Source: an uncultured virus (IMG/VR IMGVR_UViG_3300009618_000004)
Lineage: Duplodnaviria; Heunggongvirae; Uroviricota; Caudoviricetes
Virus record (IMG/VR): IMGVR_UViG_3300009618_000004
Direction: 5' to 3' (one strand)
Length of the DNA stretch: 64,000 bases
Part shown: positions 2,072-64,000 of the stretch, in pieces
Position numbering within the stretch: the first letter of the stretch is position 1
Layout: each line of letters starts with the position of its first letter
Made by a program: the position numbers and the translations under genes
The notes under the pieces: generated by a model
Databases searched by the model: none
What the model was told of the DNA's origin: nothing
The model's input: only the letters and a program-made list of their open reading frames with translations

Positions 2072-3220
2072 TTAAGCCGTCGCCCTCCGTGGCAGCATCT
2101 CCACAATCTTAGCGTTCTCGGGGCGCAAATGCTCTGCGCTGTCCCGGCCGCCGTAGGTGTTGATTGTCGTTGCGATCTTGGCGTGACGCATCAGGCCGCG
2201 CTGCGTCTCCATGTCGATGCCGAGAGTGCGCATCATGGCGCGGTGCGTGTGGCGGAAACTATGGAAGCCAAGCCCAGGCAAACCGATGCGCTCGCCAGCA
2301 GGTTGCAGGTACTCGCTTCGCAACCAGTCCCGATCCAGCGGCCTCCCCGTGCGCTCCGAGCAGAACACCCAGCGGCTCTTCAGCGCCTCATGCGCCTTCC
2401 AGCCGCGCAGGATCTCGATCAGGTTCTCGTGCAAAGGCAACGTGGCCGCCGAGGTCTTGCTCTTCGTGTCGTTGGCCTTGCCGTGAACCACGCTGCGCTG
2501 AATGTGGATGGTCTTGGCCTCGAAGTCGCAATCTTCCCACTTCAGGCCGAGAATTTCGCTGACCCTGAGACCGAGGCCGGCGGCGAGCTGCACCATCACC
2601 TTGACCGTCTCCGGCAACTGCGGGTCGTCCAGCAGCGCCTGGTACTGCGGCAGCGTGAGGATGACGAGTTCCTTAGCGCGCGTCGAGGAACCTTTCAGCC
2701 GAATCAAGTCCATGGGATTGCGCTCGACCTGGGCGTGGCCCCAGAGCATCGCCTTCTCGATGAGCAGGTGGAGCAGGTTCCGGACCTGGCCGCGGTAGAG
2801 AGATGACACCGGCACGGCCGGGCCGCGCTTCGGATGGCGCCCGATCACCGGCAGGTCTTTCAGCCAAGCCTCGACAGCCAGCACTTCGCGGCAGAACTGG
2901 TCTATGCGTAGACTGCCCCACTGCGCCTCGATCCGCTTGAAGATGCTGCGGTAGGATGCGGCGGTCGTCTCGCGCTCCGGTGGGGATTCTTTCCAGAATT
3001 TCTCGATGAGGTCGGCCATGGTGATGCACTCGACGTTGGAGTTGGCCAGCCTGCGAAAACGCTCGGCGGCCTTCTCGGCCTGGGCGCGCAACGGGAACTG
3101 CTTGACGGTGCCAACCCACTCACTACGCTGGACGCCGTTCTCACGCCACCTAAATCTCCAAGCCGCGCCGCACTTGCGCTCGACTCTGACAATCGATCCT
3201 TGCTGGAAACTGGTACGCAT
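2072..3220 (-). CDS. int: Tyrosine recombinase / phage integrase
   Basis: Catalytic motifs GLRVSE, K(SKTS), HSFRH and MRHAKIATTINTY. RBS AAGGAAAGGA precedes ATG 3220. Confidence 0.97.
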   Translation of the reverse strand: MRTSFQQGSIVRVERKCGAAWRFRWRENGVQRSEWVGTVKQFPLRAQAEKAAERFRRLANSNVECITMADLIEKFWKESPPERETTAASYRSIFKRIEAQWGSLRIDQFCREVLAVEAWLKDLPVIGRHPKRGPAVPVSSLYRGQVRNLLHLLIEKAMLWGHAQVERNPMDLIRLKGSSTRAKELVILTLPQYQALLDDPQLPETVKVMVQLAAGLGLRVSEILGLKWEDCDFEAKTIHIQRSVVHGKANDTKSKTSAATLPLHENLIEILRGWKAHEALKSRWVFCSERTGRPLDRDWLRSEYLQPAGERIGLPGLGFHSFRHTHRAMMRTLGIDMETQRGLMRHAKIATTINTYGGRDSAEHLRPENAKIVEMLPRRATA

Positions 3221-14964: not shown

Positions 14965-17900
14965 TCAGAACCGGCTGGTTGCCTTGTGTCGCCGCGCATG
15001 GTGCGATGGCTCCACTTTCTTCGGCTTGACAACGTACCGGCTCAATGGAACTTCCTCATTCATCCATTGCCTTTTGATCTTCTCCCGACGCTCGGCAGGG
15101 GATTCCTTGTGCGGACCGGTGTCCTTAAACGTGGACAGATAATCGAACAGACCTTTTCCCGTATTATAGGCGTCTCTGGGCGCAACGCCTACGATAAGAT
15201 CAGACGTGGAGGAAAGCGCGCGACGCTGCTGAACCAATTTCCCTGCATCCTTCGCGTTATGAGTTGCAACTATCTGAAGCATCTGGTTTATTTCTTCGTT
15301 GCCTGACGCTAGGGCGAGGTAGGACAGATCCAAGGCGATAGCATTCGAGGATGCCGGATTCTCCTCGCACCATTTATCGCGGCGTTGTTCGATTCCTGCC
15401 TCTGAAGAGTGCGCCCATTCGTGCATCTTCTCGCGCAACTTGTTCAATCCATACCCAGCCATTCCGAAAGCAATACCAAATCTGGCTATCAGTTTGTACG
15501 GCTCTGCACTCTTCCAGTAATCAGAATCCGCTCTCATGAGTTCATGCCAGACAGTCCTATTGATAAAACTATTTGTCTTAAACATGAATCCATGCAAAGA
15601 CTGCGAAATACGAAGAATTGTCGTCAAGCGGTCATAGAGTGGATCACCCGTGGTTCCGCGCAACACCGGCGCAAGCTCTGACGGCCTTCCACTCCCTGTT
15701 GTCCAATTTGCCGATCCAACCTCGATACGTCTCACATCCGCTGCGCTGATGTTATTCTTGGAAATGTTGTCTATGTGCTCATCTGACATACCATAAAGAT
15801 TCCCAAGTTTGCGGCGGATTGCTTGATACTTCTGGCTTGTTACGTGAGTAGTAGGATCTATAACTCCGGCGTTTAACTTCTCGTTTTCCAGATACACTCT
15901 CCTTAATTCAGGGTAAGCGTACTTTTCAAACCAAATGCGTCCCGCAGCCGACGAAATCGCCCTGCTGAAATACAGTATCGCGGTGAAACCGTTCCACTTG
16001 AGGAGCTTTTGGTCAACTGTTTCCGTTTTCAATCCGTACTCTCTCATGAAAGACTGTTTTACGTATTGCGCCATCACTCCGCTATCTACTGCATTTGCCT
16101 TTAGTTCTTTTGGGTTTGTCACCCCTTCGACTATAGCCAAGGCGAGGCTTCGCGTGTTTGTCGCCAACGGAACCTTAGCTAAATGGAAAGGTAGTTTTAG
16201 CGCGCTTGATCCCATCTTACTTAGAATCAGCCATTGGTTTACTCTCCTTAACGCCCAGCGGTCGCTATCGTGCAATCTGGCGGGATCAAGGTCTGATGTG
16301 ATGATATGATTTACCATATCCCGGTCACGCTGAGTTGGCAATTTATCTATAAGCGCATCCGTCTTCTCGCGGAACTGTCCATGAACCTCGGCGGCAGCCA
16401 GGGTTTGCGCGACTTCTTGGACGTATCTTTCGAGCGTTCCTCGATTTCGTCCGTAAAGAGGAATATCAAACTCACGCGTCCTCTCTATGTTCCCAGCCAG
16501 ACGAATTCCGCGATTGTTCCTGTCAAAGAATGCTTGCGCCTGAATCTTTGAGATGCCGCGTTGCTTGGCCACCATGTCTATCAGTTTTTCGCGGCGCTCA
16601 CTTCCGTTGGGCATATTCAAGATTTCCGATAGAGTGGTGACCTCTGTTTTCCCGTCCGCCCCTTTTATTTTGATCGGCTCGTTCCATTCATAGATGCGCG
16701 GCCAATAGTGCGGATCGGATTCAAACGAGTCGAATGGCCTGTCGATCTTGAGTCCATCATCATAGGAACGCACCACTATACCAGCATCTGCGCATCTTTG
16801 ATGGACTGTGGCAAAAAATTTAGCGAGCTCATCCGCCGCTTTCTTGATGCGCGGATTGTTGGTTGTTGCCGATCCCTCAACAATTTTTGATACTAATTCT
16901 AACTCCGGCGCTGTGATTTTGTTTCTTGAGAGCGCCCTCTCAACCATACCACCAAATTCGCCGATGTGATTTCCCATCAGTTGATCGTACTCAATCATTC
17001 GGCGGCTTGCTTCCTTACCCTCTTCCGGCATTCCGGCGTTCCGGAAGATCTTCTCAACTGCAACATCTCCAGCCGTGCCAAACATCCATACAGTTGATTT
17101 GACAAGATGGGCGGCTGAACTAGCACTCTTCTTGGCTTTGTACTTCGGAATAGCCAACTTGTCCTCAATCGCATCAATCCACAACTGAGTTTCATTTGCT
17201 CTGCTGCGCATTGTCCGCGCAACGGCATTCTCGACTGACTCCCCGGTCCCCATCGCGGCCCGGCCAGCCTCTTCCGCCTCCAGGCGAATGACTCCCTCGT
17301 TGGCGGTGACGGCGCGCGCCTTTGGTGCCGGCAGTTTTTTGAGTTCGCCAAAGAGTCCATCCCACGCGGCGCTGCCCAGGCGCTCGAAGGGGTCTTCGTC
17401 CTTCGGGCCTTGGTAGAGCTTCTCGCCTTTCCCTTTGTACTTCATGCCCTTGTTCTTGGCTTTGGCTGCGTCCGGAATCTCCACATCATCAATATGTGTG
17501 TAGCTGACTCCCTTACCGTCCTGCTCGAAGTCCGCAGCATCCGGCTTCTCTTCGTCCTGCATAAAATCTCTCACTTCGGCAGGGATTCCAGCGGCGTCAC
17601 GAAACGCCTTAGACACATCCGATTCATACTTCTCGCCATAGACCGCCGCCTTCAAAGAGCGCATCCTGGGAAGAGTTTTTGTCGCCAGCGTCTTCATCTC
17701 GGGAAGCGAGTCTGATGTGAAGAAATACATGGCCACATTCGACTTCGATCCGTAGCGCCACGGTCTAGCTGTGCCTTGCTCTAGCATCACTGGAGACCAC
17801 GGTACGTCGATAAATAACGCCGCGCGAGGTTTTGTGCCTATTTTGTCTTGAGCATTAGCCCCAATGGAACCAGCGGCAAAGCTCATATACATCGCATCTT

Positions 17901-20900
17901 TTTCACCAGCCTGAAAAGCCTTCAGTTCACCTGCGCGAACCGCGTTATGCGGCCCAGCAAAGATAGCGATCTTGTCCCCAAAAGCCTCTCTCATCTTCTC
18001 TACCACATTCGGCAGGGGCGGCAGCATCTTGTTAATCTCCGCGCCCAGACCGGCCGGCAATTCGTTAAAGAATTCCATTCCCTCCTCGGCCGGCGAGCGA
18101 TACTCGGTGAACATGATCGGCGACCATCCTTTTGCGGACAAATCTTTTGCCAGTTTGATGACATTCGGGAGCCTCGCCGCCGTCAGGTATCGCTTTAGAT
18201 AAATAACCTCATGTCCCTTGACCGGGGTAATGTATTTGCTCATTCCCGCCTTCTGGAATGCGGCGCCTGCTTTGGCGAACGCGGCACGAATGCTGCGCAC
18301 CCCGGCGCGAACTTCTTCCGTCTGAGGAACGAGCGCTACGCGCGCCTCGACTCCAGTCATATCTTTATATAGCGTCTGCCACTGGCCACGCTCGATGAGT
18401 TGCTGACGCAATTTGGCGAGTTGCTCTGGCGTGGATCGGCTGCTGTATTCGTTTGGTCCGCTCTCGACCAATCCGAATTGTTTCGCCCATTGAGTGAATC
18501 CCCCTTTTGGCCACAAACCGAGCTTGTGCATATAGCCGATCTGCATGATCTTGGAGTATGGCGTTGCACTTGAGTAGACCACCTTCTTCGCCACATGGCC
18601 AAGGAGTGTCACAGCTTTCCCTTGCTCGGCTTCTTCCCAATTACTCGCCTCTGCGCTCTCGTCAAACAAGACAAAATCCCACGGCACGGATAGAACATCT
18701 TTGTCGCCCCTTATCGACGTATATGTTGTGGCGTACATCCCCGTCTGCAGTTGCGACATATCGGATGGGAGATTATCCACATCAATTCCAAACTTGCGGG
18801 CTACGTCCATGAAACCGTCATCATCCTCAATCAAGTTACGACTTTTGGTTACAAGCAAACCAACCTTTTCACCGCCATCTCCGAGAAGATGATGAGCTAT
18901 GGCTGACAGAAGCCACGTCTTTCCTGATCCGGCAGGAGCTGCGAGAATCGTCGCATCCTGATGTTGAAGAGCCGAGAGAACACCTTCAGCGGCTTCCGCC
19001 TGCCCTAGATAGATCATCATCTCGCGCACGTCAGGGTCCAGCCGAACTGTAGGTGGCGGTGTGCCCTCCGGCAAGCCGAGAGCTTCTACGTATCCGCGCC
19101 ATACGTCAGGGTCTACCACAGGGGTTCCGCGCGGCTTCTTGGGAGCCTGCAGACTTGCCGCCGGCACATCTGCCAAGGGATTTTTGCTCGGCTCCGCTAT
19201 CTTCCCTGTTCTTGTCTTTCTTGGAGAACTCTCCCCAAGCGAAACCGCCGTCGGGTCTCCGTGTACTTGTTGCACGGTCACTGCTTGCGCCGGCGTCGTC
19301 GGCTCGTCCATCCGCGGCATCTCGCTGACGCCGTGAACAAGTTGAATAATACTGGTATCCTTCAGCTCCGGTTTTCCGGCACCAATAATACTGGTGGAGC
19401 CGCGCAGTTTATCTTCGATGTTATTCAACTGGCCGCGCAGTAATGCTCGACGTTCGGGATTATTTTCCCGCTTCAAATCATCTTCAATAGACTTGGCCTT
19501 GCGTGCCAACTCGATTACTTCATTTAGCCCAGGTTGACGCAATTTCATTGATAAGCTACCAACCCTTATGTATATAGTCTCCTCTCCTTTAACTTTTAAC
19601 ATCTCATAAAATCCAATCTTCTTGGCATTTCTCTTGACAAACGCCTTGGCGAGTTTTTCGTCCGTAAAAACCACATCCTGCGTCTTGCCAAACACGGGTC
19701 TGGCTGACTTCTCGATCACCTTCGCTTCTTTAGGAATTTCTACCTTGTCGGCGAACTCAGCAATAGCATCAATGTCCACTCTCTTTATGAATGGTTTGCG
19801 CTCAGCCGTACTCCAATCATGCCACTCATCAAACATGGCATCAAGTTCTTTGTTTCCCGGACCATTCGCAAACGTGCGAACTGAATTATAGATGGACTGC
19901 ATCGCCCGGCTTATGTGGGCAAACACACCCTCCATTTTCTTCGTACCCTCCGCGTTGCCGCGCTTAATTCCTCCATCGTGATAGTAGTGAACAAAAGCAT
20001 CCGCGAATCTCTCCTCTTGCTCCCGCGACCACGGTTTACCGGGTTCCGCTCCAACAAATTTGTTGGCGATCTTCTGGTATTCAGGCTTCATAAACCTGCG
20101 AATGTGGTGCGCCATCTCGTGAAGATAAGTTGAAGAGTCTGCGGTGTCGCACAGGTGAATCATCGCTTGCGCCTCGTTGAGCATTTGGAAATACCCGCCG
20201 CTCTTCGGAGCACTAGGATCTTCGCCGCCAAAAATATAGGTCAACCTGCGATTGCCGAGGATGCTTTCCATGGATTCGCCCAACGCGGTCGGGAGAATGT
20301 GCTCAAACATCTGCGTGATCTTCTCGGTAGTCTCAATATCCTTGCTGATTTCCGGGTGTGCGGCCAGCGCCTTGCGCAACTCCCGCACTGTGCGCGGTCC
20401 TTCCGGCAGCGCATCGACCACGCTCGACGAGTCCGGCTGTACATCCGCAATCACCGTCTCCTGGTGCTCTTCCGGCTCAACCGGAAGCGGGCCGCGTCCA
20501 TCCTCGATCGCCGCCTTGACCGAATCGGGAATAGGGGCAACTGATCCCCATTCTTCGGGAATGACGTGCAGTGTATTGCCTTCGCCATTCTTGAACTTGC
20601 TGGCAATCTCAGCGTTAAACACATCCGCCGGATGTTCTGCGCCAAACATGTTCGGCTTGGACCTGTCAGCATACTTCGCCATCATCAGAGCGTATTCGCG
20701 AGGAGTCTTCTCAAGCGCCATTGCCAAGGCAACAACCGCATCGGTTTCTGGATGCCCTAACGATTGACCCTCAACAAAGGAAAAAGTATCTAAGCCAAGA
20801 TCACCTTGCTCCGCTCCGAACCCTCTCTCGTCCTGATAGTTTCCAGTGTAGAGATACTTCTCTATAAGCGAAGAGCTTCCCGCTCCCTTTACTACAACAT

Positions 20901-23900
20901 CCGGCTTCCCTATAAGGCGAGACAGCCTATAGGAAATATCTTGAGCTTTTGTGATAAGACGCACGGCATCTGAGTTATAGGAAGCGAGATTCCAACTATC
21001 CCCGGCACTCTTTGCCTTGACAAAGAATATCCCGGCGCGTGCCAATTTGTTCCTCACATTGTCCGATATGCCGTCAAGCGCCTTGGGGTCGCTCACAGTC
21101 AAACCGACCAGCATATTCTCTATGAGGTTCTTGGCTTTCGGAGTGAGGTCGCCCGCCTTGTCGCCATCCTGAACAATAAACTCAGACCTCTTGTTTGGCG
21201 CGATAATCCCCGCATCTGCCAGAAGGTTCGCAATATCGGCTGACCGCGCACGCATTGCCGTGCTCAGGGAAATAGAGCTTTCTTTCCCTTGCTTATCTAT
21301 TTCGACCTGGGGCAGTGAAGAGAATATATCGTCGAGACGGTCGAGGTATTCCGGCGTCAATAGCCGCGCCATCGCCACGCCTTCCTCTTCTGCGCTCGAT
21401 CCTTTCATTAGATCGCGATTTGACTCTTCACCAAGTCTCGTCCATTCGATTTCGTCGGTAACAGGTTCATCCAGGAGCCTGTACACATCGTATGGTTCCG
21501 TCCCAAACTCTACCTGCCCGGCAGCGTCGGAAAGTCCAAACCGGTCAATGCGCGTTGATCTGAAATTCAATAACTTCTGGTAAGCGTCAGGATGGAGGAG
21601 CCGCGCTCTTTGCCGGATCATCTCCCGGCCATTGCCGCCAAAGACTTCAAGAACTGTTACATTTCCATCCGCATCCATGCGCCATGCGAGAAGCGGCGGA
21701 CCTTCCATCGTTCCCGGTGTATCCGAATACAAAATCCTACCGTCTGGGTTGGCCCCCTTTACGGTAATATCTGTCTGATCTCCCTTGTTATTTTCGTAGC
21801 GCCGTTTCTGAACTTTCTGGTCGTATCCCTCAGTGGGCTCGAAAGTTATAGGGTGGTGAGACGTGCGCACAGCCTTTGATGGAAGCAGAACATAGTGGGC
21901 CTTTAATCCATCCGGGTGATTCGGCGTGACGATTTCCGTCGCAGCGCCGAGAACCAACTTCGGACGGGGACGACCAGGGGGCGGGGGCGGAGCCGGATTT
22001 ACTACCGACTCCGCTCCTGCTACGACAGCTTCCGCCTGTTGCCGGGCGTTGTCTGCCGCCTGCTGTGCGGCCTCGGCCGCAGCCGTCTGACCTTGCGTGT
22101 GAAGGTCGTCGGCGGCTTGTTGCAGGTCACTGGACTGAATTGATAACCGTGCTACCCTCTCAACTGCATCGGCGCGCGCTTCTTCAGGATTGTCTCTGAA
22201 ACTGGCCGCCGTCTTTTCCGCCAACTCCCTCGCAATATAATTCTCCCCCGCCGCGCGCACCTGGCGCATCCGGGTCAGAAACTCACTCATCGCTGGGGTA
22301 CGCTTGGATTCGGAAACCTTCTTGACGACCTCTTCGAGTTTGAACGGATCGTCTGTATGCTCCAGCATGACCGCGCTGAGGTTCTTCGTCTGCTCCGATA
22401 GCCCCCGTCTAACCCGGTTCACTTCATCGAGAGACGGCGATCGCCCGGTCTCCGAAGCAGTGATTGCCGCCGCGAGTTCTTTGTGATGGCTATCACGCTC
22501 CTCTGTGACCATGCGCGCGGCAAGGTCTTCATCCATCGCCCGGCGAATCGAGTCGCGCTGGTCCATGCGTAGACTGGCACGCTGCCGCATCATGCCCTGG
22601 GCGTCCATGTTGGCAATGTCGATATGCTGACCGGTGCGCATTCGCTCGATGAGGTCCACCGTCATAAACGAGCGAACCTTTTCCGGCTTCGTGCGCAGGT
22701 AGTCGGCCAGCGCCGGCGCGCGCATCTCGGCGGGAAGTGAGTCGAAGGATTTTCCGAGGAGGCGCTCCGTGTGCGCGTTGAGGTCGTGGGCGGTCGCCGG
22801 GTCCGCCTTGAGAACGGAGTCGATGTTGCTGCGGTTGAGGATGAGCTTGGCGGTTCCGGCGGCAAGGTCCGCGCCCGGCGCCAGCGGCTGCTCGTCGCCC
22901 GTGGCGTTACGCTCCAAATACTGCTTGACCGCGGCATCGATCATGTCCGCGTGCTTCACGTCGGAGAGGTGGCACACGTATGCCGGAGTCTTCTTGAAGG
23001 CTTCCCACTGTTCGGGATGGTTCTTCTCCAGCCAGGCCGCGGCGAACTTCTGGCGATCGACAGGCAGCGAGGTGAACAACTGGCCAAACTGCGCTTCGGT
23101 GCGCTCTTGCACGGCGCGCTCGGCGGCCGTGACCTGGGCGTGCTCTTCGGGTGTTGGCTCCCCGGAGGCTCTCGCTATCAAAGTCTTTCCGTACTTGTTC
23201 CATTCCCTATGACGTTCCTGCCAATCCGTGGGCATGAAATCTACAACTTCTTGATGTATTCTAGCTGTGCTCCAGTCAGGGTTACGACGGGCCACATTGC
23301 CATAAATTCTCTGATACCGAGCATCATCTTTGGGATCAGTTAGTTCTTCAGGTGTGGACTCTGCGGCAGCGGCGCGGCGGTCGACGACCGGGATGACTGG
23401 CTCTGCTGGTACAGGTTCGTCTCTCTGCTCCGGTCCCGCCTCGCGCTCTGAGGTTTTTACGGTGGTTCGGCGTTCGAGGAGTTCCGGGTCTTCGCGATTT
23501 TCGGTGACAGAAAATCCACGCTGCTCCTCGGCGGAGACGATCATATCAGCACGCTCGGCGGCGTGGCGAGCGTCCTGCTGCTCGTCGATTGCTTTACGGG
23601 CGGCGGCTTCGCGCTGGGTCGCTTCGTGCTTGTAGGCCTCGGCGCGCGCCTTGCGCTCAACGATCTGGCGAATAAGTTTCTTGGCGGCCTCCAGGCGCTG
23701 CTGGCGAACCTCTTCCGTGGTCAGCTCGGCGGCCTCCGCTCCAGCTTTGGCCGCACGCGGGTCGATGCCAACCTTTTTGAGTAGCGGACGCCCCTCTGCG
23801 TCTTTCCCTACACCGTGGAAGAATCGCGGAGTCACTCGCTTTTGATTAAGCTTCGCTACTTCCTGGTCCACGCGCTTTTTGAATCGCGGGTTGGCATCCT

Positions 23901-25176
23901 CAACCGCCTCATAAAGAACGGATGCTTTCTCGTTTGGAGTCAGGTCACCAAACTTTTTCTTGTAGGCTTCCTGTGCCTTGTCGTTGAGAATGGCGGTAGT
24001 GTCGCGATTTTGGAAGACATCTACCCCGGAACGAATTGCGCGCTCTCCAGTACCCATCGCGACAATGACGGCGATGTTTCCGAGCATCCCGCCCCAGGCT
24101 TCCGAACTGGCACCTGTATCGCCCTTTGCGGCAGCCTCTGATGCTCCCGCAATTCCTTCGACGCCGCTCTTCGCAATGTCGGCTTGGAACACCAATCCCA
24201 TCGGCTTCGAGATAGACTCCGGAGCCATGTAAATCGCGGCCAGGGAATAAATGTTCTCAATGCTGGTCATGCCCTCGACAGACTTGGTGAAGCCGGTCAC
24301 GCCGCGAGAGAATATGTTCTTACTCTTCGGATCAAAGACTTTCTGGAAGGCCGCACTTTCAGCAACTGGTGTCAGTGTAGATCCAAAGTTTTCCTGAATG
24401 CTCTTCTGGAGACCAAGGGTTTGTTGAGCTTGCGCATTTCCCTGCGCTGCCCACTTCTGTAAGAACACCTGTGGGTCTACATCGGTCCCGCTGATAAGCG
24501 CAGGCGGTATGTTGGGCATCCCCCCAGGTCCACTGCCACCAAGAAACAAATCGTACATGGCGGAAGAACCCTTTTTAGTCCAACGCCACCATGTAGGCTC
24601 ATAGCTGGGTTTTGGCTGCTCTGTCGCGGTTGGTTGAGCAGTCTGCGCTTGGGCCTGCATATCCCAACGATCTGCGCTGTATACCTCCTTATCTATCCTC
24701 TCATCTACGCCACGAACTTGCCGCAACTCATCGTCAGTAAAAACCGGCTGCAAATTAAATCCATGATTAGGCTTGGGCAGTGCGCTACGAAGATTTTCCT
24801 CGTAAGCACTCAAGTCTTTGAGATAGCGCAGTTCATCCGCCTCATTCGCAAAGTTCGTCGATCCAACGGCCATCATCGGGGCTATCGCGGCGACGTGCGG
24901 AACTTTAGAGAACGGAACCTGCTTCACTTGGCCATTAACCTTAACGGCGTAGGTTCCCTCGCGGTCTGGATTCTCTTCGATCTTAGCGAGATTGTCGGCG
25001 GCTTTTGGCACACTCTGCGGCTGATGCACGGACACGGAGAACTGCTTCCCGCGGACAGGAATCTTGAACGTCCTGCCCTGGTGCTCGTGTTCTTCCGGGG
25101 CAGCGTTCCTTACGGGAATCTTGAACGTCTGAAGGGAAGGCGCTTCGGTCGTCGTAGTCGCGGTTTCGTCTGCCAT
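14965..25176 (-). CDS. Giant (3403 aa) polyvalent internal virion/ejection protein: ddrB-like ParB domain, zincin metallopeptidase, strawberry-notch-like SF2 helicase
   Basis: ParB-like (V.TSHHP.TF...Q.R.Y...GPP...GGNGR, about 21300-21920), TYLHEMAH (about 20110), APAGSGKT, LFDES, YSSATP and PWSP...Q..AR..R (about 17700-19000). Last gene of the virion operon. Confidence 0.85.
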   Translation of the reverse strand: MADETATTTTEAPSLQTFKIPVRNAAPEEHEHQGRTFKIPVRGKQFSVSVHQPQSVPKAADNLAKIEENPDREGTYAVKVNGQVKQVPFSKVPHVAAIAPMMAVGSTNFANEADELRYLKDLSAYEENLRSALPKPNHGFNLQPVFTDDELRQVRGVDERIDKEVYSADRWDMQAQAQTAQPTATEQPKPSYEPTWWRWTKKGSSAMYDLFLGGSGPGGMPNIPPALISGTDVDPQVFLQKWAAQGNAQAQQTLGLQKSIQENFGSTLTPVAESAAFQKVFDPKSKNIFSRGVTGFTKSVEGMTSIENIYSLAAIYMAPESISKPMGLVFQADIAKSGVEGIAGASEAAAKGDTGASSEAWGGMLGNIAVIVAMGTGERAIRSGVDVFQNRDTTAILNDKAQEAYKKKFGDLTPNEKASVLYEAVEDANPRFKKRVDQEVAKLNQKRVTPRFFHGVGKDAEGRPLLKKVGIDPRAAKAGAEAAELTTEEVRQQRLEAAKKLIRQIVERKARAEAYKHEATQREAAARKAIDEQQDARHAAERADMIVSAEEQRGFSVTENREDPELLERRTTVKTSEREAGPEQRDEPVPAEPVIPVVDRRAAAAESTPEELTDPKDDARYQRIYGNVARRNPDWSTARIHQEVVDFMPTDWQERHREWNKYGKTLIARASGEPTPEEHAQVTAAERAVQERTEAQFGQLFTSLPVDRQKFAAAWLEKNHPEQWEAFKKTPAYVCHLSDVKHADMIDAAVKQYLERNATGDEQPLAPGADLAAGTAKLILNRSNIDSVLKADPATAHDLNAHTERLLGKSFDSLPAEMRAPALADYLRTKPEKVRSFMTVDLIERMRTGQHIDIANMDAQGMMRQRASLRMDQRDSIRRAMDEDLAARMVTEERDSHHKELAAAITASETGRSPSLDEVNRVRRGLSEQTKNLSAVMLEHTDDPFKLEEVVKKVSESKRTPAMSEFLTRMRQVRAAGENYIARELAEKTAASFRDNPEEARADAVERVARLSIQSSDLQQAADDLHTQGQTAAAEAAQQAADNARQQAEAVVAGAESVVNPAPPPPPGRPRPKLVLGAATEIVTPNHPDGLKAHYVLLPSKAVRTSHHPITFEPTEGYDQKVQKRRYENNKGDQTDITVKGANPDGRILYSDTPGTMEGPPLLAWRMDADGNVTVLEVFGGNGREMIRQRARLLHPDAYQKLLNFRSTRIDRFGLSDAAGQVEFGTEPYDVYRLLDEPVTDEIEWTRLGEESNRDLMKGSSAEEEGVAMARLLTPEYLDRLDDIFSSLPQVEIDKQGKESSISLSTAMRARSADIANLLADAGIIAPNKRSEFIVQDGDKAGDLTPKAKNLIENMLVGLTVSDPKALDGISDNVRNKLARAGIFFVKAKSAGDSWNLASYNSDAVRLITKAQDISYRLSRLIGKPDVVVKGAGSSSLIEKYLYTGNYQDERGFGAEQGDLGLDTFSFVEGQSLGHPETDAVVALAMALEKTPREYALMMAKYADRSKPNMFGAEHPADVFNAEIASKFKNGEGNTLHVIPEEWGSVAPIPDSVKAAIEDGRGPLPVEPEEHQETVIADVQPDSSSVVDALPEGPRTVRELRKALAAHPEISKDIETTEKITQMFEHILPTALGESMESILGNRRLTYIFGGEDPSAPKSGGYFQMLNEAQAMIHLCDTADSSTYLHEMAHHIRRFMKPEYQKIANKFVGAEPGKPWSREQEERFADAFVHYYHDGGIKRGNAEGTKKMEGVFAHISRAMQSIYNSVRTFANGPGNKELDAMFDEWHDWSTAERKPFIKRVDIDAIAEFADKVEIPKEAKVIEKSARPVFGKTQDVVFTDEKLAKAFVKRNAKKIGFYEMLKVKGEETIYIRVGSLSMKLRQPGLNEVIELARKAKSIEDDLKRENNPERRALLRGQLNNIEDKLRGSTSIIGAGKPELKDTSIIQLVHGVSEMPRMDEPTTPAQAVTVQQVHGDPTAVSLGESSPRKTRTGKIAEPSKNPLADVPAASLQAPKKPRGTPVVDPDVWRGYVEALGLPEGTPPPTVRLDPDVREMMIYLGQAEAAEGVLSALQHQDATILAAPAGSGKTWLLSAIAHHLLGDGGEKVGLLVTKSRNLIEDDDGFMDVARKFGIDVDNLPSDMSQLQTGMYATTYTSIRGDKDVLSVPWDFVLFDESAEASNWEEAEQGKAVTLLGHVAKKVVYSSATPYSKIMQIGYMHKLGLWPKGGFTQWAKQFGLVESGPNEYSSRSTPEQLAKLRQQLIERGQWQTLYKDMTGVEARVALVPQTEEVRAGVRSIRAAFAKAGAAFQKAGMSKYITPVKGHEVIYLKRYLTAARLPNVIKLAKDLSAKGWSPIMFTEYRSPAEEGMEFFNELPAGLGAEINKMLPPLPNVVEKMREAFGDKIAIFAGPHNAVRAGELKAFQAGEKDAMYMSFAAGSIGANAQDKIGTKPRAALFIDVPWSPVMLEQGTARPWRYGSKSNVAMYFFTSDSLPEMKTLATKTLPRMRSLKAAVYGEKYESDVSKAFRDAAGIPAEVRDFMQDEEKPDAADFEQDGKGVSYTHIDDVEIPDAAKAKNKGMKYKGKGEKLYQGPKDEDPFERLGSAAWDGLFGELKKLPAPKARAVTANEGVIRLEAEEAGRAAMGTGESVENAVARTMRSRANETQLWIDAIEDKLAIPKYKAKKSASSAAHLVKSTVWMFGTAGDVAVEKIFRNAGMPEEGKEASRRMIEYDQLMGNHIGEFGGMVERALSRNKITAPELELVSKIVEGSATTNNPRIKKAADELAKFFATVHQRCADAGIVVRSYDDGLKIDRPFDSFESDPHYWPRIYEWNEPIKIKGADGKTEVTTLSEILNMPNGSERREKLIDMVAKQRGISKIQAQAFFDRNNRGIRLAGNIERTREFDIPLYGRNRGTLERYVQEVAQTLAAAEVHGQFREKTDALIDKLPTQRDRDMVNHIITSDLDPARLHDSDRWALRRVNQWLILSKMGSSALKLPFHLAKVPLATNTRSLALAIVEGVTNPKELKANAVDSGVMAQYVKQSFMREYGLKTETVDQKLLKWNGFTAILYFSRAISSAAGRIWFEKYAYPELRRVYLENEKLNAGVIDPTTHVTSQKYQAIRRKLGNLYGMSDEHIDNISKNNISAADVRRIEVGSANWTTGSGRPSELAPVLRGTTGDPLYDRLTTILRISQSLHGFMFKTNSFINRTVWHELMRADSDYWKSAEPYKLIARFGIAFGMAGYGLNKLREKMHEWAHSSEAGIEQRRDKWCEENPASSNAIALDLSYLALASGNEEINQMLQIVATHNAKDAGKLVQQRRALSSTSDLIVGVAPRDAYNTGKGLFDYLSTFKDTGPHKESPAERREKIKRQWMNEEVPLSRYVVKPKKVEPSHHARRHKATSRF

Positions 25177-52999: not shown

Positions 53000-53686
53000 A
53001 TGCCAGCAAACCTTGAACTTCTAGCCGCCAGCCGCGTGATGGTCGACCAGGTGATCGCTCGCGGCCAAGTACCCGTCATGTTCTTGATGAACCGCGCGAC
53101 CTCCCAGGCGCTTGCCGAGACATTGGCTGCCGCCTACAGGGAGCGCCAATCAACTTTCTGGCGGCTGTGGCTCAGAATCCGGCATGGGAAGGTTGCGCCG
53201 CGGCTGGAGTCGCTACACGGCATCCCTGTGGCACAGGCCGACTACCTGCCCGACGGCGGCTTATTCCTGCAGGTGGCTGACCGAGCCCAAGTGGGACTGC
53301 CGGCGGCGCCGGGCGTGCCAACCAGTATGGGACCGCCTGCCGGTATGGAGCAGGCCGCCCAGGATGCTCGGCAGCAGCTCGCGGCTCGGGGTGAGGAGTT
53401 TTGGAAGAAGGATCGCATCCAGGCGCTGAACGATGCGATGGACGGCGTGGCGGGGCCGGGCGAGATCCGGCCAACACTGAACGACCTGTCAAGCGGGGGC
53501 GGCGCGCGGCCGTCGGCGAGCGATGTGTTGATGAAGGCGATGGAGGACGTGGACGACCTGAACGGCATTGTTGTAGTGCGCGTGCATCGCAACGGCAACG
53601 TAGATCTCTGCCTTAACGTAGATCAGTTCGCCGCCCAAGGGGTTCTCCAGAAGGCGCAGCAGTATTTGTTTATGAAGGGGTATTGA
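53000..53686 (+). CDS. Hypothetical two-domain protein; N-terminal part resembles a capsid A-domain
   Basis: RBS AAAGGA; PVMFLMNRAT...LHGIPV....LPDG.LFL. Confidence 0.7.
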   Translation: MPANLELLAASRVMVDQVIARGQVPVMFLMNRATSQALAETLAAAYRERQSTFWRLWLRIRHGKVAPRLESLHGIPVAQADYLPDGGLFLQVADRAQVGLPAAPGVPTSMGPPAGMEQAAQDARQQLAARGEEFWKKDRIQALNDAMDGVAGPGEIRPTLNDLSSGGGARPSASDVLMKAMEDVDDLNGIVVVRVHRNGNVDLCLNVDQFAAQGVLQKAQQYLFMKGY

Positions 53687-56064
53687 TGACGCCCTACTAC
53701 GAATCCAACGGAGTGACGATCTATCACGGCGATTGCCGGGAGATATTACCACTACTTGAGTTAGTCCACGCGATAATCTGCGATCCACCTTATGAACTAG
53801 GTTTTATGGGAAAAGCATGGGATAAGTCTGGTATTGCCTATGATGTGAAGATGTGGCAAGAGTGCTTGCGTGTACTCAAGCCCGGTGGCCACCTGCTTTC
53901 GTTTGGCGGGAGCCGTACCTATCACCGCATGGCCTGCGCGATCGAGGATGCAGGATTCGAGATCCGCGACCAAATCATGTGGCTGTACGGATGCCTGGAT
54001 GAGCAAACAGAACTTGTGTCTGAGAGTGGAGTCAAGCCGTACCATAAAGCAAAAATAGGTGAGCGCGTATTGTGCTACAATCCAGAGAACGGCGAGTATT
54101 CTTACCAGCCAATCATGGAGATTGTCGAGTATGACTATAGCGATACCGCCTATCGTCTTATCGGAGATTTTGGAGAGCAAGTCGTCTCCAGAAACCATCG
54201 CTGCATTGTTGAACGAGGCGGAAGCGAAGTATTCCAATTTGCCGAAACGATCAGGTCCGAGGCGCGTGTACCCGTTTTGGAAGGTTTGTCAGAATTGCGG
54301 CAAGCCCTTTCCAACCTTCAATCGGACTCAGGCGGCTCGGAACAAATCGTGCAGCCGAGAGTGCACCAATACACTGATTGGGAAAGGGAACAGCGGTTCG
54401 ACTTCGCTAAAGAAGAGGAAGGGCAAGATAGTTCCCTGTGTGGTGTGTGGGAAAGAGAAATGGGTTCCCTTGGCGTGGTTGAAGAAAATCAAGCAAACAG
54501 TGTGCAACTACGAGTGCAATGGAGTTCTGAGAGGCACAGCGTGGAAACAACACGCATACAAGGGGAGGAAACACTGGAAACCGGAATCGGAGGCTGCGTT
54601 GAAGATTCGCATGACGGGTCCGACCAATCCAGCATGGAAGGGGGGTCTGACTTATCGGAAGCGCAAGGGAGCGTATGCCGACCAGCCAATAAAGTATGTT
54701 CGTTGCCCATCCGAGTTCCTGAGCATGGCGCGGAAGGATGGCTATGTGATGGAACATCGTCTCCTGGTCGCTCAGGTAATTGGCAGACCTCTCCAGAGAG
54801 CCGAAGCTGTTCATCACAGGAATCACAAAGCGAAGGAGAATCAACTAACCAACCTAATGCTGTTTGCGACGAACGCGGAACACAAGGCATACGAGCATGG
54901 CGCGGCCATAAAACCTCTTTGGTGCGGGTTGTGCCATTCCAATACACCGGAAAGATGTGGTGTCTGCGTGTATCGACAGGAGCCTTCGTCGCAGTCCGTG
55001 GCGGCGCAGCTTTCCCGACCGGCAATAGCGGATTTCCGAAGTCGCTGGACGTGAGCAAGGCGATTGACAAGGCGGCAGGCGCGACGCGGCCTGTCGTGGG
55101 CGTCAATACGAATGGCAGCGGTCCCAACCTCACCAAACTCGACAATCATGAGGCTGGCGATACTGGCATCGGCTACATGGATGGGAGCGGCAAGGTATTC
55201 GATGTGACCGCGCCTGCCACTGTGGAAGCCAGGCAGTGGCAGGGTTGGGGCACGGCCCTGAAACCCGCTCACGAGCCTATCTGTGTAGCCCGCAAGCCCG
55301 TCGAGGGCACGGTCGCGGCCAACGTGCTCAAGAATGGCACTGGGGCTTTGAACATCGACGGATGCCGTATAGATGCGACCGACGATCTTGTTGAAGATGA
55401 TGGTCGCAGAGTAGATATGGCGCGTGAGTCAATTGCGGAAGGATACGATAGACCAAACGCAACAATGTTTCGTACAGGTAAACCAGCGGTTCGTGGTGGT
55501 CCATCAAACCAACTTGGCCGCTGGCCTGCCAATGTCATCCACGACGGCAGCGATGAAGTTCTATCTTGCTTTCCTGAAAGCAAGGGTCAGCAAGGGGATG
55601 TTCGTGGTGATGAACCTTCAGGCGTAACCGACGAGATATATGGAAAATTCAATGGACGAGTTTCTTCTCCTGCAAGACTTGACTCCAGCTCAGCCGCCCG
55701 TTTCTTTTACACCGCCAAGGCTGACAAAGAAGAGCGCGAGCGCAACTGCTGCGAACTTACCCCCCCCAAAAGGGATGGTTCTCGAAAGGATGGAAACCCT
55801 GGTGGTGACAATCCACGAAACCGAGGCGTTCACGAGCGCATTAACAATCACCCTACCGTCAAGCCTCTGGATTTGATGCGCTATCTCTGCAAGTTGCTTT
55901 GTCCGCCGAGCGGGGGAATCCTTCTGGACCCATTTATGGGAAGTGGAAGCACGCTGATCGCCGGGCGTGGATTCTATCAACGTTGCATCGGTATCGAACT
56001 CGAAGAGAGGTACTGCGAGATTGCGGCGAAGAGACTGAGCCAACAGGTACTTGGTTTTGAATAG
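53686..56064 (+). CDS. DNA amino-methyltransferase (N6-A/N4-C, beta class) interrupted by an intein
   Basis: HGDC, CDPPY, LKPGG, W.YG|SGFPKS, HPTVKP, LDPFMGSGST and GIELE. Confidence 0.95.
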   Translation: MTPYYESNGVTIYHGDCREILPLLELVHAIICDPPYELGFMGKAWDKSGIAYDVKMWQECLRVLKPGGHLLSFGGSRTYHRMACAIEDAGFEIRDQIMWLYGCLDEQTELVSESGVKPYHKAKIGERVLCYNPENGEYSYQPIMEIVEYDYSDTAYRLIGDFGEQVVSRNHRCIVERGGSEVFQFAETIRSEARVPVLEGLSELRQALSNLQSDSGGSEQIVQPRVHQYTDWEREQRFDFAKEEEGQDSSLCGVWEREMGSLGVVEENQANSVQLRVQWSSERHSVETTRIQGEETLETGIGGCVEDSHDGSDQSSMEGGSDLSEAQGSVCRPANKVCSLPIRVPEHGAEGWLCDGTSSPGRSGNWQTSPESRSCSSQESQSEGESTNQPNAVCDERGTQGIRAWRGHKTSLVRVVPFQYTGKMWCLRVSTGAFVAVRGGAAFPTGNSGFPKSLDVSKAIDKAAGATRPVVGVNTNGSGPNLTKLDNHEAGDTGIGYMDGSGKVFDVTAPATVEARQWQGWGTALKPAHEPICVARKPVEGTVAANVLKNGTGALNIDGCRIDATDDLVEDDGRRVDMARESIAEGYDRPNATMFRTGKPAVRGGPSNQLGRWPANVIHDGSDEVLSCFPESKGQQGDVRGDEPSGVTDEIYGKFNGRVSSPARLDSSSAARFFYTAKADKEERERNCCELTPPKRDGSRKDGNPGGDNPRNRGVHERINNHPTVKPLDLMRYLCKLLCPPSGGILLDPFMGSGSTLIAGRGFYQRCIGIELEERYCEIAAKRLSQQVLGFE
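53992..55026 (+). mobile_element. Intein (345 aa) in the methyltransferase
   Basis: Starts CLDEQTELV, block B SRNH, ends YTGKMWCLRVSTGAFVAVRGGAAFPTGN, with +1 Ser. Removal restores the conserved WLYG-SGFPKS. Confidence 0.93.
54239..55054 (+). CDS. HNH homing endonuclease encoded in the +1 frame inside the intein (start uncertain)
   Basis: CQNC/CSREC and CVVC/CNYEC Zn modules, NPAWKGG, GYVMEHRL...IGRPL...EAVHHRN....NQLTNL. The frame is open from 54059 to 55054. Confidence 0.88.
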   Translation: MPKRSGPRRVYPFWKVCQNCGKPFPTFNRTQAARNKSCSRECTNTLIGKGNSGSTSLKKRKGKIVPCVVCGKEKWVPLAWLKKIKQTVCNYECNGVLRGTAWKQHAYKGRKHWKPESEAALKIRMTGPTNPAWKGGLTYRKRKGAYADQPIKYVRCPSEFLSMARKDGYVMEHRLLVAQVIGRPLQRAEAVHHRNHKAKENQLTNLMLFATNAEHKAYEHGAAIKPLWCGLCHSNTPERCGVCVYRQEPSSQSVAAQLSRPAIADFRSRWT

Positions 56065-62435: not shown

Positions 62436-62629
62436 TGAGCCCTCCGTGGCTCATACTCCACCGCCCGCTCACGCCAGTCTGCGCAATGCGCAATCCGAGC
62501 ATGTTCCTCGTTGTCTTTCGCTACAAGTTTCTCCGCCGTCGCCTGTTTCAACTTAAAGCCGACCACCTGCAACGGCCGCCAAGTCCGCCCCGCGTCTTCG
62601 CTCCGCTCGATAATCCAGATGGAAGTCAT
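62432..62629 (-). CDS. Small hypothetical protein, paralog of 9090-9269
   Basis: SIWIIERSEDAGRTW...RAVEY. Confidence 0.7.
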   Translation of the reverse strand: MTSIWIIERSEDAGRTWRPLQVVGFKLKQATAEKLVAKDNEEHARIAHCADWRERAVEYEPRRAQ

Positions 62630-64000
62630 TAGATCACCTCAATCTCATTCAGCAGTGGCGCAGCCTCGCGGATGCGTTTCTCGGCCATTGCTGCATAGAC
62701 CGGGTTCAACTCGATTCCAATGAACTCGCGGCCATACCGCAGCGCCACCACGCCGGTTGTACCACTGCCGCTGAAAGGGTCGAGCACCGTGCCCGCCGGT
62801 TCAATCGGGCAGTGACAGGACTTTTCGGCTGGCTTGATGTGCCCATATCCCAACAAGAGGTCCAGCAAATCCGATGGAAGGGGCCGTGCGCCGGAAAGGT
62901 CAGTGCGAATGTAATGGGCGAACGCCGGGCCGCAAAGTGCTGCAATCTTTTCCCGGTTAGGGTGAGTGCGCAGTTGCTCGGCATATTGCCGCTGCTCATA
63001 CCGTGTGATCGGGCGCGTTCCTTCGTCGGAACGGCGAGGCCGTGACATGCCAGCGCGTCCGATTTCCAGCGTAGGGTCATCTATCGGCCCTGACCCGGTG
63101 GGAGTTTCAATGACCTCGCAACAGTTGCAACGCTTGCCGGCAGGCGGGCAGCCTGCCAGAATGCACGGCACGATCAACTCTTCAGGGAAGGTGGCGAAGT
63201 GGGCTTCCTTGTACGGCTGTGTGGCGACGGTCCAGACATCACGCTTGTTGCGGGTCTCCCAAGGCACATCGGCAATCTTCATCAACCCCGCAGCAGTGCG
63301 ATGCTCCTCGCTGTCGCTGCCCTCATATTCAGTCACCAATTTATGCGACTTGTTGCCTGCGGTTCGAGGCTTATTGGACGACCGGCCAAGCTGATGCTCC
63401 GCCGTCTTCCCATTGTTGAACTTGTTGCCTTTGAAACTGCGTGGCTCGCCCCCATGCTGCTGATCTTCTGGCCGTCCGTCTAATTCCCATGCGCCCTTGC
63501 TGGTGTATGGACGCCGCGGATCGCAAGTTGCTGAAGGCTCTTTGATGGCATCGAAATCAAAGTAGTAACGTGGCGACTTGGTTAATAGAAACAGGTACTC
63601 GTGGCTCTTGGTGCAGCGATCGGTGACGCTCTCCGGCATCGGGTTCGGTTTGGCCCAGATAATGTCCTGGCGCAGATACCAGCCGTCGGCGCGCAGAGCA
63701 AAGGCCAGCATCCATGGGATGCCTACTAGGTCTTTAGGTTTAATTGTTTCATGCCGTCCATCTGAGGGGCGTTTGCTCATTTGAACAGTTCCACCAGATT
63801 GAACATAACCTCTTGCTTCAGCGGTTGCTCGTGCCTTACTGCTTCCGTTTTCTCCTTTTCCTCCCCAATAGGAATCTCCGATATTAAGCCATAAAGTTCC
63901 GTCACTCCGCAGAACTCGTCGCACCTCACGAAAGACCGCAACCATGCGACAGACGTAGCACTCTCCACACTCCGCCGGCTCAAAAAACTGCTTCAAATCG
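62629..64000 (-). CDS. DNA amino-methyltransferase (N4-C/N6-A, beta class), 5'-partial
   Basis: [38 protein letters not shown] and [12 protein letters not shown]; the N-terminus lies beyond the window. Confidence 0.95.

Follow-up and report, generated by a model that had tools for sequence, protein, structure and literature searches.

How can a single insert in a phage gene be at once an intein and the gene of a homing endonuclease, if the two are written in different reading frames of the same strand? The question is raised by a DNA methyltransferase (methylase) gene in the window analysed here, a stretch of 64,000 nucleotides (nt) from an uncultured virus of the Caudoviricetes (IMG/VR record IMGVR_UViG_3300009618_000004). 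An earlier, sequence-only reading had described in this gene an intein whose centre is devoid of any domain pattern and whose HNH endonuclease is overprinted in the +1 frame, and had proposed a two-frame selfish element. Comparison with related loci supports that proposal through the constancy of the arrangement, a switch of selection between the frames and the openness of the host frame at synonymous sites. As judged from these comparisons, the insert is probably a mobile methylase intein that divides its splicing and nuclease functions between two same-strand frames, the nuclease being translated from an internal start and the element spreading by cleavage-driven homing.

Conservation of the two-frame arrangement

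Hereafter, frame 0 denotes the methylase (host) frame, +1 the HNH frame and the third frame serves as a control. A search with an alignment of the HNH proteins retrieved 51 IMG/VR viral loci and 10 loci in GTDB genomes, the latter being metagenome-assembled genomes (MAGs) labelled Kiritimatiellae, Bacteroidetes, Chloroflexota, Acidobacteriaceae, Verrucomicrobia, Gallionella and others. By tblastn of phage records, an AT-rich uncultured phage (LR756508.1) was found whose methylase open reading frame (ORF) carries an intein at the same site as in the window; the centre of this intein is K/R-rich and unrecognisable, and a +1 ORF with an ATG encodes an HNH protein 37% identical to that of the window. 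Among 65 sequences scanned, 58 matched the intein N-block, the intein C-block and the HNH; 55 of these are unique, the three duplicates including the window's own IMG/VR copy. The seven rows left uncounted are two truncated contigs (L042, L060), the intein of mycobacteriophage Lilac (L003), which has no HNH, three HNH relatives devoid of intein blocks (L002, Mycobacterium phage Mantra; L064, a Cupriavidus scaffold; L063, a Curtobacterium plasmid) and a free-standing HNH gene (L048).

The N- and C-blocks share one frame, with the HNH in +1 relative to them, in 58 of 58 loci, and in none does the HNH lie in the host frame, an outcome that the sequence-only reading had named as one that would speak against it. 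Over the whole intein (199–352 codons), frame 0 contains no stop in any of the 58 loci, and the +1 frame is likewise open across the centre in all of them, while the third frame carries 9–44 stops. The loci span intein G+C contents of 0.32–0.62, and the identity of their HNH proteins to that of the window falls as low as 37–38%.

Nucleotide diversity at each codon position, calculated from codon alignments of the 55 unique inteins, changes register along the element. At intein offsets 0–30 and 930–1035 (53992–54021 and 54922–55026), the third position of frame 0 varies most (0.61–0.67) and the second least (0.05–0.29). From about offset 270 to 930 (54262–54921), it is the third position of the +1 frame, equivalent to position 1 of frame 0, that varies most (0.42–0.68); +1 positions 1 and 2 drop to 0.12 and 0.09 at 54623–54652 and to 0.21 and 0.04 at 54743–54772. 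Selection acts on the intein frame at both ends and on the HNH frame in the centre, the switch falling where the two-frame proposal had anticipated it. In the overlap at offsets 150–300, diversity is low at all three positions (0.12–0.55, mostly at most 0.37), as would be expected where intein block B and the N-terminus of the HNH are both constrained.

The open host frame is itself under selection. Synonymous codons were shuffled within the central HNH segment of each of the 55 loci, with 2000 shuffles per locus. Summed over the loci, no frame-0 stop is observed where 500.3 are expected from shuffling, in contrast with 633 observed against 576.5 expected in the third frame. The proportion of stop-free shuffles is 0/2000 in most loci and corresponds to a probability of at most 0.057 in any; for the window, the shuffle mean is 11.5 stops against none observed, and 0 of 2000 shuffles were stop-free. 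To create a stop in frame 0, an HNH codon with T as its last letter has to be followed by one that begins with AA, AG or GA, so that a synonymous change in the HNH gene is always sufficient to eliminate the stop. Maintenance of the host frame through synonymous choice thus entails no protein-level cost to the nuclease. Such selection would be pointless unless the full-length precursor were translated and of importance, and it thus provides indirect evidence for splicing in cis.

Table 1. Features of the methylase gene and its two-frame insert (window positions)
Feature	Positions	Strand	Details
Precursor ORF, N6/N4 DNA methyltransferase	53683..56064	+	793 residues, TTG start
N-extein	53683..53991	+	103 residues, ends ...IMWLYG; junction same as in intein-free relatives
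Intein, frame 0	53992..55026	+	1035 nt, 345 residues; Cys1 to Thr-Gly-Asn345, then +1 Ser
N-terminal splicing region, blocks A and B	53992..54327	+	residues 1–112; SRNH = residues 66–69; pLDDT 89–97
Shine–Dalgarno-like GGAG	54117..54120	+	10 nt upstream of ATG 54131
HNH endonuclease ORF, +1 frame	54131..55054	+	307 residues, conserved ATG to TGA stop
Doubly constrained overlap	54142..54291	+	150 nt, offsets 150–300; frame 0, block B; +1, HNH N-terminal helices
Two zinc-ribbon modules of HNH (CxxC...CxxxC, twice)	54287..54520	+	C53, C56, C125 and C129 invariant (alignment A4)
Frame-0 shadow linker	54337..54873	+	residues 116–294; S/E/G/Q-rich; pLDDT <50, no predicted secondary structure
HNH catalytic core, EHRL...VHHRN...NLMLF...EHKAYE	54755..54895	+	HNH_3 spans residues 209–250
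C-terminal splicing region, blocks F and G, WCLRV...FPTGN	54889..55026	+	residues 300–345; pLDDT 88–98
C-extein	55027..56064	+	345 residues plus stop, begins SGFPKSLDVSKAIDK

The endonuclease of the +1 frame

The maximal +1 ORF (54059..55054) opens with a GTG and has 331 residues; the ORF listing confirms that it and the methylase frame are both free of stops across the insert. The features that had led to its assignment as an HNH endonuclease, namely the paired CxxC...CxxxC modules, the NPAWKGG motif and the EHRL...VHHRN...NL core, are all present, and the ORF matches eight HNH endonuclease families of PHROGs (phrog_20891, E 7.1e-15; phrog_10730, E 3e-14). Across 42 HNH sequences of the family, H209, H228, N241, N248 and H251 are invariant, and the Pfam model HNH_3 matches 40 of the 42 at E<=0.01 (best 1.6e-11). 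AlphaFold, run on the 42-sequence alignment, predicts N-terminal helices, the zinc-ribbon modules and the HNH core with a mean predicted local distance difference test score (pLDDT) of 83.8. Residues 7–34, which are encoded over intein block B, are predicted to be helical with pLDDT above 90, whereas the tail from about residue 280 (approximately 54968 onward), which overlaps the C-terminal splicing blocks, is of low confidence and poorly conserved. The family profile gave only weak zinc-finger matches among the sequences of the PDB.

The suggestion that such a nuclease would be hidden from standard annotation holds only in part. It is not invisible, because 557 relatives of the +1 ORF (E<=1e-10), mostly on contigs of roughly 1 kb, are already predicted as proteins by gene callers. 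One of them, P0031 (309 residues, 61% identical to the +1 ORF), lies on a 5.6-Mb contig and bears the NCBI name 'HNH endonuclease [Azotobacter vinelandii]'.

It is unlikely that the HNH of the window is a decaying passenger, unexpressed or inactive, in what has become a mini-intein with a long linker. The homing-cycle model does predict loss of the nuclease after fixation, and there is a precedent in locus L053, in which the HNH ORF is cut to 143 residues with frame 0 open; moreover, the HNH_3 score of the window is at the weak end of the family, and its +1 ORF has a non-conserved tail of 43 residues that extends beyond the end of the intein. However, the ORF is intact, none of the residues invariant in the family alignment is missing from it, the ATG and the GGAG are retained, the protein folds confidently in the AlphaFold prediction, and target alleles free of the intein are present in the same habitats.

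Probable start of HNH translation

Of the 55 unique loci, 33 have an ATG at intein offset 139 (54131 in the window) and another 4 have a GTG there. This ATG is the one start, among the candidates put forward in the sequence-only reading, that is conserved across the family; the GGAG said to precede it is also present, its position now being corrected to that given in Table 1. Within 6–12 nt upstream of the offset-139 start, a Shine–Dalgarno core of at least 4 nt (GGAG, GAGG or AGGA) occurs in 19 of 37 loci, and several AT-rich loci have A-rich leaders in its place. Many loci carry +1-frame stops up to offsets 90–136, just before this ATG. Internal initiation is on this sequence evidence the best-supported route to the HNH protein, with frameshifting as a minor rival.

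Programmed +1 ribosomal frameshifting, which would yield a fusion of N-extein, N-intein and HNH, appears quite improbable. It would accommodate the openness of the +1 frame from 54059, upstream of the ATG, and the 18 of 55 loci in which the offset-139 start codon is absent, and it would dispense with internal initiation within a translated ORF, an inefficient process. Yet there is no conserved frameshift site, because offsets 60–149 vary at all three codon positions (diversity 0.40–0.67); the upstream +1 stops just mentioned are found in most loci; an ATG with a Shine–Dalgarno-like motif is conserved; and the free-standing relative L048 has its own ATG together with the same N-terminal segment.

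The splicing domain of frame 0

The frame-0 insert reads CLDEQTELV...SRNH...WCLRVSTGAFVAVRGGAAFPTGN, followed by SGFPKS. All the elements of the complete intein originally proposed, Cys1 at 53992, SRNH, WCLRVSTGAFV...FPTGN ending at 55026 and the +1 Ser, are in place. C1, H69, C324, T343, G344 and N345 do not vary among 54 frame-0 sequences, S66 reaches at least 90% conservation, and the junction GN followed by SGF (the +1 Ser) is found in 58 of 58 loci. A profile of the 54 sequences matches the AceL NrdHF intein 6zgq (E 3.2e-7) and, weakly, two further inteins. The top 12 Foldseek matches (E<=0.001) of the AlphaFold model computed from this alignment are inteins, hedgehog Hint domains and bacterial intein-like domains, including 6zgq (E 6.9e-6), hedgehog 6tyy and 1at0, and the gp41-1 intein. 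The N- and C-terminal splicing regions are accordingly predicted to form a Hint fold. We note in passing that 6zgq, the closest solved relative, is a class 3 intein, and that the block-F Cys C324 (54961–54963) and the terminal Thr-Gly-Asn (55018–55026) are invariant, Cys1 also being kept.

Two other layouts were considered and rejected. A functional folded domain in the frame-0 centre is at variance with the diversity at codon positions and with the AlphaFold prediction (pLDDT <50); the earlier description of this centre as devoid of a domain pattern agrees with the failure to find any Pfam family there. A split-intein or 'fractured gene' layout was discarded because no locus has a frame-0 stop.

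It is very improbable that the insert does not splice and remains in the methylase as a tolerated loop, its intein-like ends being relics. Such a loop has been proposed for ShiLan, the hidden out-of-frame HNH of mycobacteriophage methylases that is associated with neither an intein nor an intron (Arsenault, Gosselin & Gogarten, Genes 2025, PMC11855218). In Mantra-type and Cupriavidus methylases, related HNH sequences do lie out of frame within an open host frame without intein blocks, and the penultimate His of the intein is missing. On the other hand, frame 0 is under strong purifying selection in the Hint blocks, C1, H69, N345 and the +1 Ser never vary, AlphaFold predicts the Hint fold at a pLDDT of more than 90, and the site falls within the conserved motif WLYG-SGFPKS, where a loop of 345 residues would be unlikely to be tolerated.

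Independent contigs

Logan contigs of four runs were compared with the window over 53900–55150, and showed no insertion or deletion; these are contigs rather than raw reads, so that rare variants could escape. A 934-nt contig from a separate study (X3) is identical to the window over 54065–54998, and X4 and X5 add further identical pieces. An assembly or sequencing artefact, in which two compensating indels would have pushed an in-frame HNH out of frame in this copy only, was a legitimate concern for a metagenome-derived phage contig and had not been excluded by the sequence-only reading, but it is rejected with near certainty, since all 58 related loci, which come from many samples, show the +1 arrangement and none has an in-frame HNH, the contigs of X3, X4 and X5 from independent studies match with 0 gaps, and the two frames meet in overlaps some 150 nt and 100 nt long rather than at points.

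A segment of 43 nt (54182–54224) within the doubly coded stretch also matches further contigs in X1, X3 and X4 with at most 3 differences. The word depth of these contigs is about ten times higher (e.g. 151.5 versus 14.8 in X1), and they probably belong to other, commoner members of the intein family.

Empty sites, mobility and relatives

The case for mobility was built on empty sites and pairwise identities. Of 15 close extein relatives, 13 have W[LVI]YG joined directly to SGFPKS; the window's own record and the L008 contig account for the remaining two. The intein-free locus L066, with an N-extein 88% identical to that of the window, has a gap of 0 at the site, and relatives read IMWLYG and then SGFPKSLDVSKAIDK. 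Compared with these intein-free alleles, the insertion is in frame and has exact boundaries. Contigs spanning the empty site are present in two independent peat metagenomes (X3, X4) that also contain the intein. Over 1176 pairs of loci, the similarity of inteins correlates only weakly with that of their exteins (Spearman 0.30); for example, L010 and L012 have inteins 88% alike and exteins 54% alike.

Several relatives depart from the common layout. The shortened intein of L053 (2221–2817) has 199 codons and an open frame 0, and its +1 ORF stops after 143 residues, without the HNH core, which looks like nuclease decay. L048 (2483–3298) is a free-standing HNH gene of 271 residues with its own ATG; both of its other frames are closed, and its protein retains the N-terminal segment (SRFPNEHIVSVLNELEQ), which in copies embedded in inteins overlaps block B. 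On the scaffold of Cupriavidus sp. (L064, 1978–3903), the methylase frame is open through an insert with a +1 HNH (2456–3022) 41% identical to that of the window; lacking intein blocks, this methylase represents a ShiLan-like hidden HNH in a bacterial genome. Finally, gp64 of Mycobacterium phage Mantra (L002, 913–3237) has an in-frame insertion of approximately 170 residues near its N-terminus, with a LAGLIDADG-like motif (YWLAGLIDGEGCF) and no Hint blocks seen around the insertion.

Genomic context

The precursor matches PF01555 (N6_N4_Mtase; E 1.7e-26) in two stretches that flank the insert, and phrog_67 (E 2.3e-66); it has a DPPY motif within the N-extein and FMGSGST close to the C-terminus. 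The surroundings are phage-like, with genes for a major head protein, a portal and a large terminase at 43–51 kb of the window. The structural region also contains an ORF of 3403 residues (14968–25176, − strand), for which, as for most large ORFs nearby, PHROGs gave no match at E<=1e-5. Another N6_N4 DNA methyltransferase gene (62629–63999, − strand) is cut off by the end of the window; it showed neither an HNH in an alternative frame nor a similar hidden insert.

Comparison with known systems

Whether this architecture had been described was a question left open by the sequence-only reading. It has, for other nuclease families and other host genes. Gosselin, Arsenault & Gogarten (bioRxiv 10.1101/2025.01.02.630785) describe, in inteins of actinobacteriophages, a nuclease resembling endonuclease VII that lies 'in reading frame 3 relative to the intein', besides anti-sense LAGLIDADG and VSR-like nucleases, the non-canonical host genes being those of DNA polymerase, minor capsid, terminase and thymidylate synthase. 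These inteins resemble the present one in that a nuclease on the same strand but out of frame lies between the splicing blocks while the host frame remains open, and invasion of an intein by a free-standing nuclease is the origin proposed for them. They differ in that the nuclease here is an HNH_3 enzyme with two zinc ribbons, in +1 and in a methylase, a gene that is not among the hosts named there; furthermore, the family of the window comes from environmental phages and from MAGs of several phyla.

The cyanobacterial dnaX intein of Phillips, DeSimone & Gogarten (bioRxiv 10.64898/2026.09.14.751524) carries a LAGLIDADG endonuclease in a +2 ORF, for which a Shine–Dalgarno-like motif, frame-specific omega values and coexisting alleles are reported. 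A disordered in-frame centre, a confident fold of the overlapping ORF, the Shine–Dalgarno-like motif and frame-dependent selection are common to both systems, and the authors propose secondary invasion of a mini-intein. There, however, a LAGLIDADG nuclease in +2 resides in a cellular replication gene, whereas here an HNH in +1 resides in a phage methylase.

ShiLan shares with the window the methylase family, a host frame open through the insert and an unstructured in-frame product (PMC11855218). The zinc-ribbon HNH proteins are also homologous, that of the window matching the hidden HNH of Mantra gp64 with E 8e-15 and 28% identity. ShiLan, by contrast, has no splicing domain and is thought to remain as a loop of the protein, and its site is EP[VI]VVARKP, with the HNH in the other alternative frame; here the site is WLYG-SGFPKS, the frame is +1 and a complete intein shelters the HNH. 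Despite the homology of the HNH, the element of the window is not classed as ShiLan because a complete Hint domain is present. Both bioRxiv preprints and the ShiLan paper come from one group.

The methylase intein of mycobacteriophage Lilac (gp101, L003) has the same insertion point (WLYG, C...GN, SGFPKS) and homologous Hint blocks (C-terminal, 59% identity, E 9e-9; N-terminal, E 7e-5), but contains an in-frame LAGLIDADG-like domain (LLGWVWTEGGF) and no HNH. In the fractured genes of Dassa et al. (2009, PMC2677866), the N and C regions of the intein likewise enclose a nuclease gene that is translated on its own; there, however, the host gene is in two ORFs joined by trans-splicing, whereas here all 58 loci have an uninterrupted host frame. 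As far as the available parts of this literature on out-of-frame nucleases go, no out-of-frame HNH inside a methylase intein was found, though the supplements of the bioRxiv preprints may list one; full-text searches for the architecture yielded no nearer case. What is new here is the nuclease family, the frame, the host gene and the much broader distribution; the architecture itself was already described in 2025–2026.

Discussion

The division of functions between two frames suggests the following course of events. In frame 0, the halves of a complete Hint splicing domain would be joined by approximately 180 residues of meaningless, disordered polypeptide. The full-length precursor would be translated and the intein would excise itself, ligating ...WLYG to SGFPKS... 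to give an active methylase. The zinc-ribbon HNH_3 endonuclease of 307 residues would be made separately, from ATG 54131 behind the GGAG, as its conservation indicates, and would presumably cut intein-less methylase alleles at or near the WLYG-SGFPKS site, leading to homing. The host frame, for its part, would stay open purely through synonymous codon choice in the HNH gene. That such an arrangement uncouples nuclease dose from host-gene expression, as had also been suggested, is speculation.

A number of observations weigh against this interpretation. Profile searches of the two frames gave a mixed answer: the HNH of the window reaches only about 16.6–16.8 bits with HNH_3, below the gathering cut-off of 24.8 bits, even though most family members match the model, and no Pfam family, intein models included, matches the frame-0 insert alone at E<=0.1. 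Among NCBIfam models, that of an intein-containing radical SAM protein matches only 17 of the 54 members (best E 3.4e-6) and intein_Nterm gives weak matches in 3 of 54, the intein of the window matching no NCBIfam intein model. Structural support for a beta-beta-alpha-metal fold of the HNH core is weak as well. Foldseek with the whole HNH model gave no match at E<=0.001, and the best VIA-align match of the core (residues 162–259) is a weak one to I-HmuI 1u3e (Z 4.7, root-mean-square deviation 4.8, 78 residues aligned), with I-PpoI, McrA and the IscB HNH scoring below it. The penultimate His of block G is absent, the position being occupied by the invariant Gly344 of Thr-Gly-Asn; this His is common in inteins without being universal. 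The 18 loci devoid of an offset-139 start must use other starts, many at offsets 82–100, and since ATG 54131 overlaps the codon of the invariant frame-0 Tyr47, its conservation may partly stem from the intein frame. The 58 loci descend from one ancestor and therefore show long maintenance of the arrangement, not 58 independent events. Finally, protein splicing, translation of the HNH and cleavage of the intein-less allele are steps that we infer.

As to the origin of the element, its sequence relationships point most probably to a methylase intein that already existed and whose linker was entered by a free-standing HNH gene. At this insertion site, relatives have a LAGLIDADG nuclease in frame instead.

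It is tempting to go one step further and to regard the zinc-ribbon HNH as an autonomous invader of methylase genes, always out of frame and surviving wherever synonymous choice can keep the host frame open, a possible but rather doubtful extension. One HNH lineage may then link the intein family, the ShiLan insertions, the chromosomal methylase of Cupriavidus and free-standing copies such as L048. If this were true, positions 54142–54291 would be an ancient dual-coding stretch, in which block B and the N-terminal helical domain of the HNH are both functional, and would rank among the most diverse and longest-lived overprinted segments known in a mobile element.

Taken as a mobile intein with its nuclease in the +1 frame, the element has consequences for annotation. 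Judged from the long ORF alone, the gene would appear as a methylase with an unexplained insert of 345 residues, and the nuclease would possibly be missed; intein surveys that seek an in-frame nuclease would class such elements as mini-inteins with odd linkers. The system is also suited to the study of initiation in nested genes, since a change of TAT to TAC at 54130–54132 would remove the ATG and leave the intein unchanged. That host-frame stops are avoidable at synonymous sites of the nuclease offers a simple explanation of the low cost of overprinting in +1. The family further connects two reports that have been treated separately, on non-canonical inteins and on the hidden HNH of ShiLan methylases. 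Inteins with an out-of-frame nuclease are thus no curiosity of actinobacteriophages or cyanobacteria, but a stable and widespread design in environmental phages.

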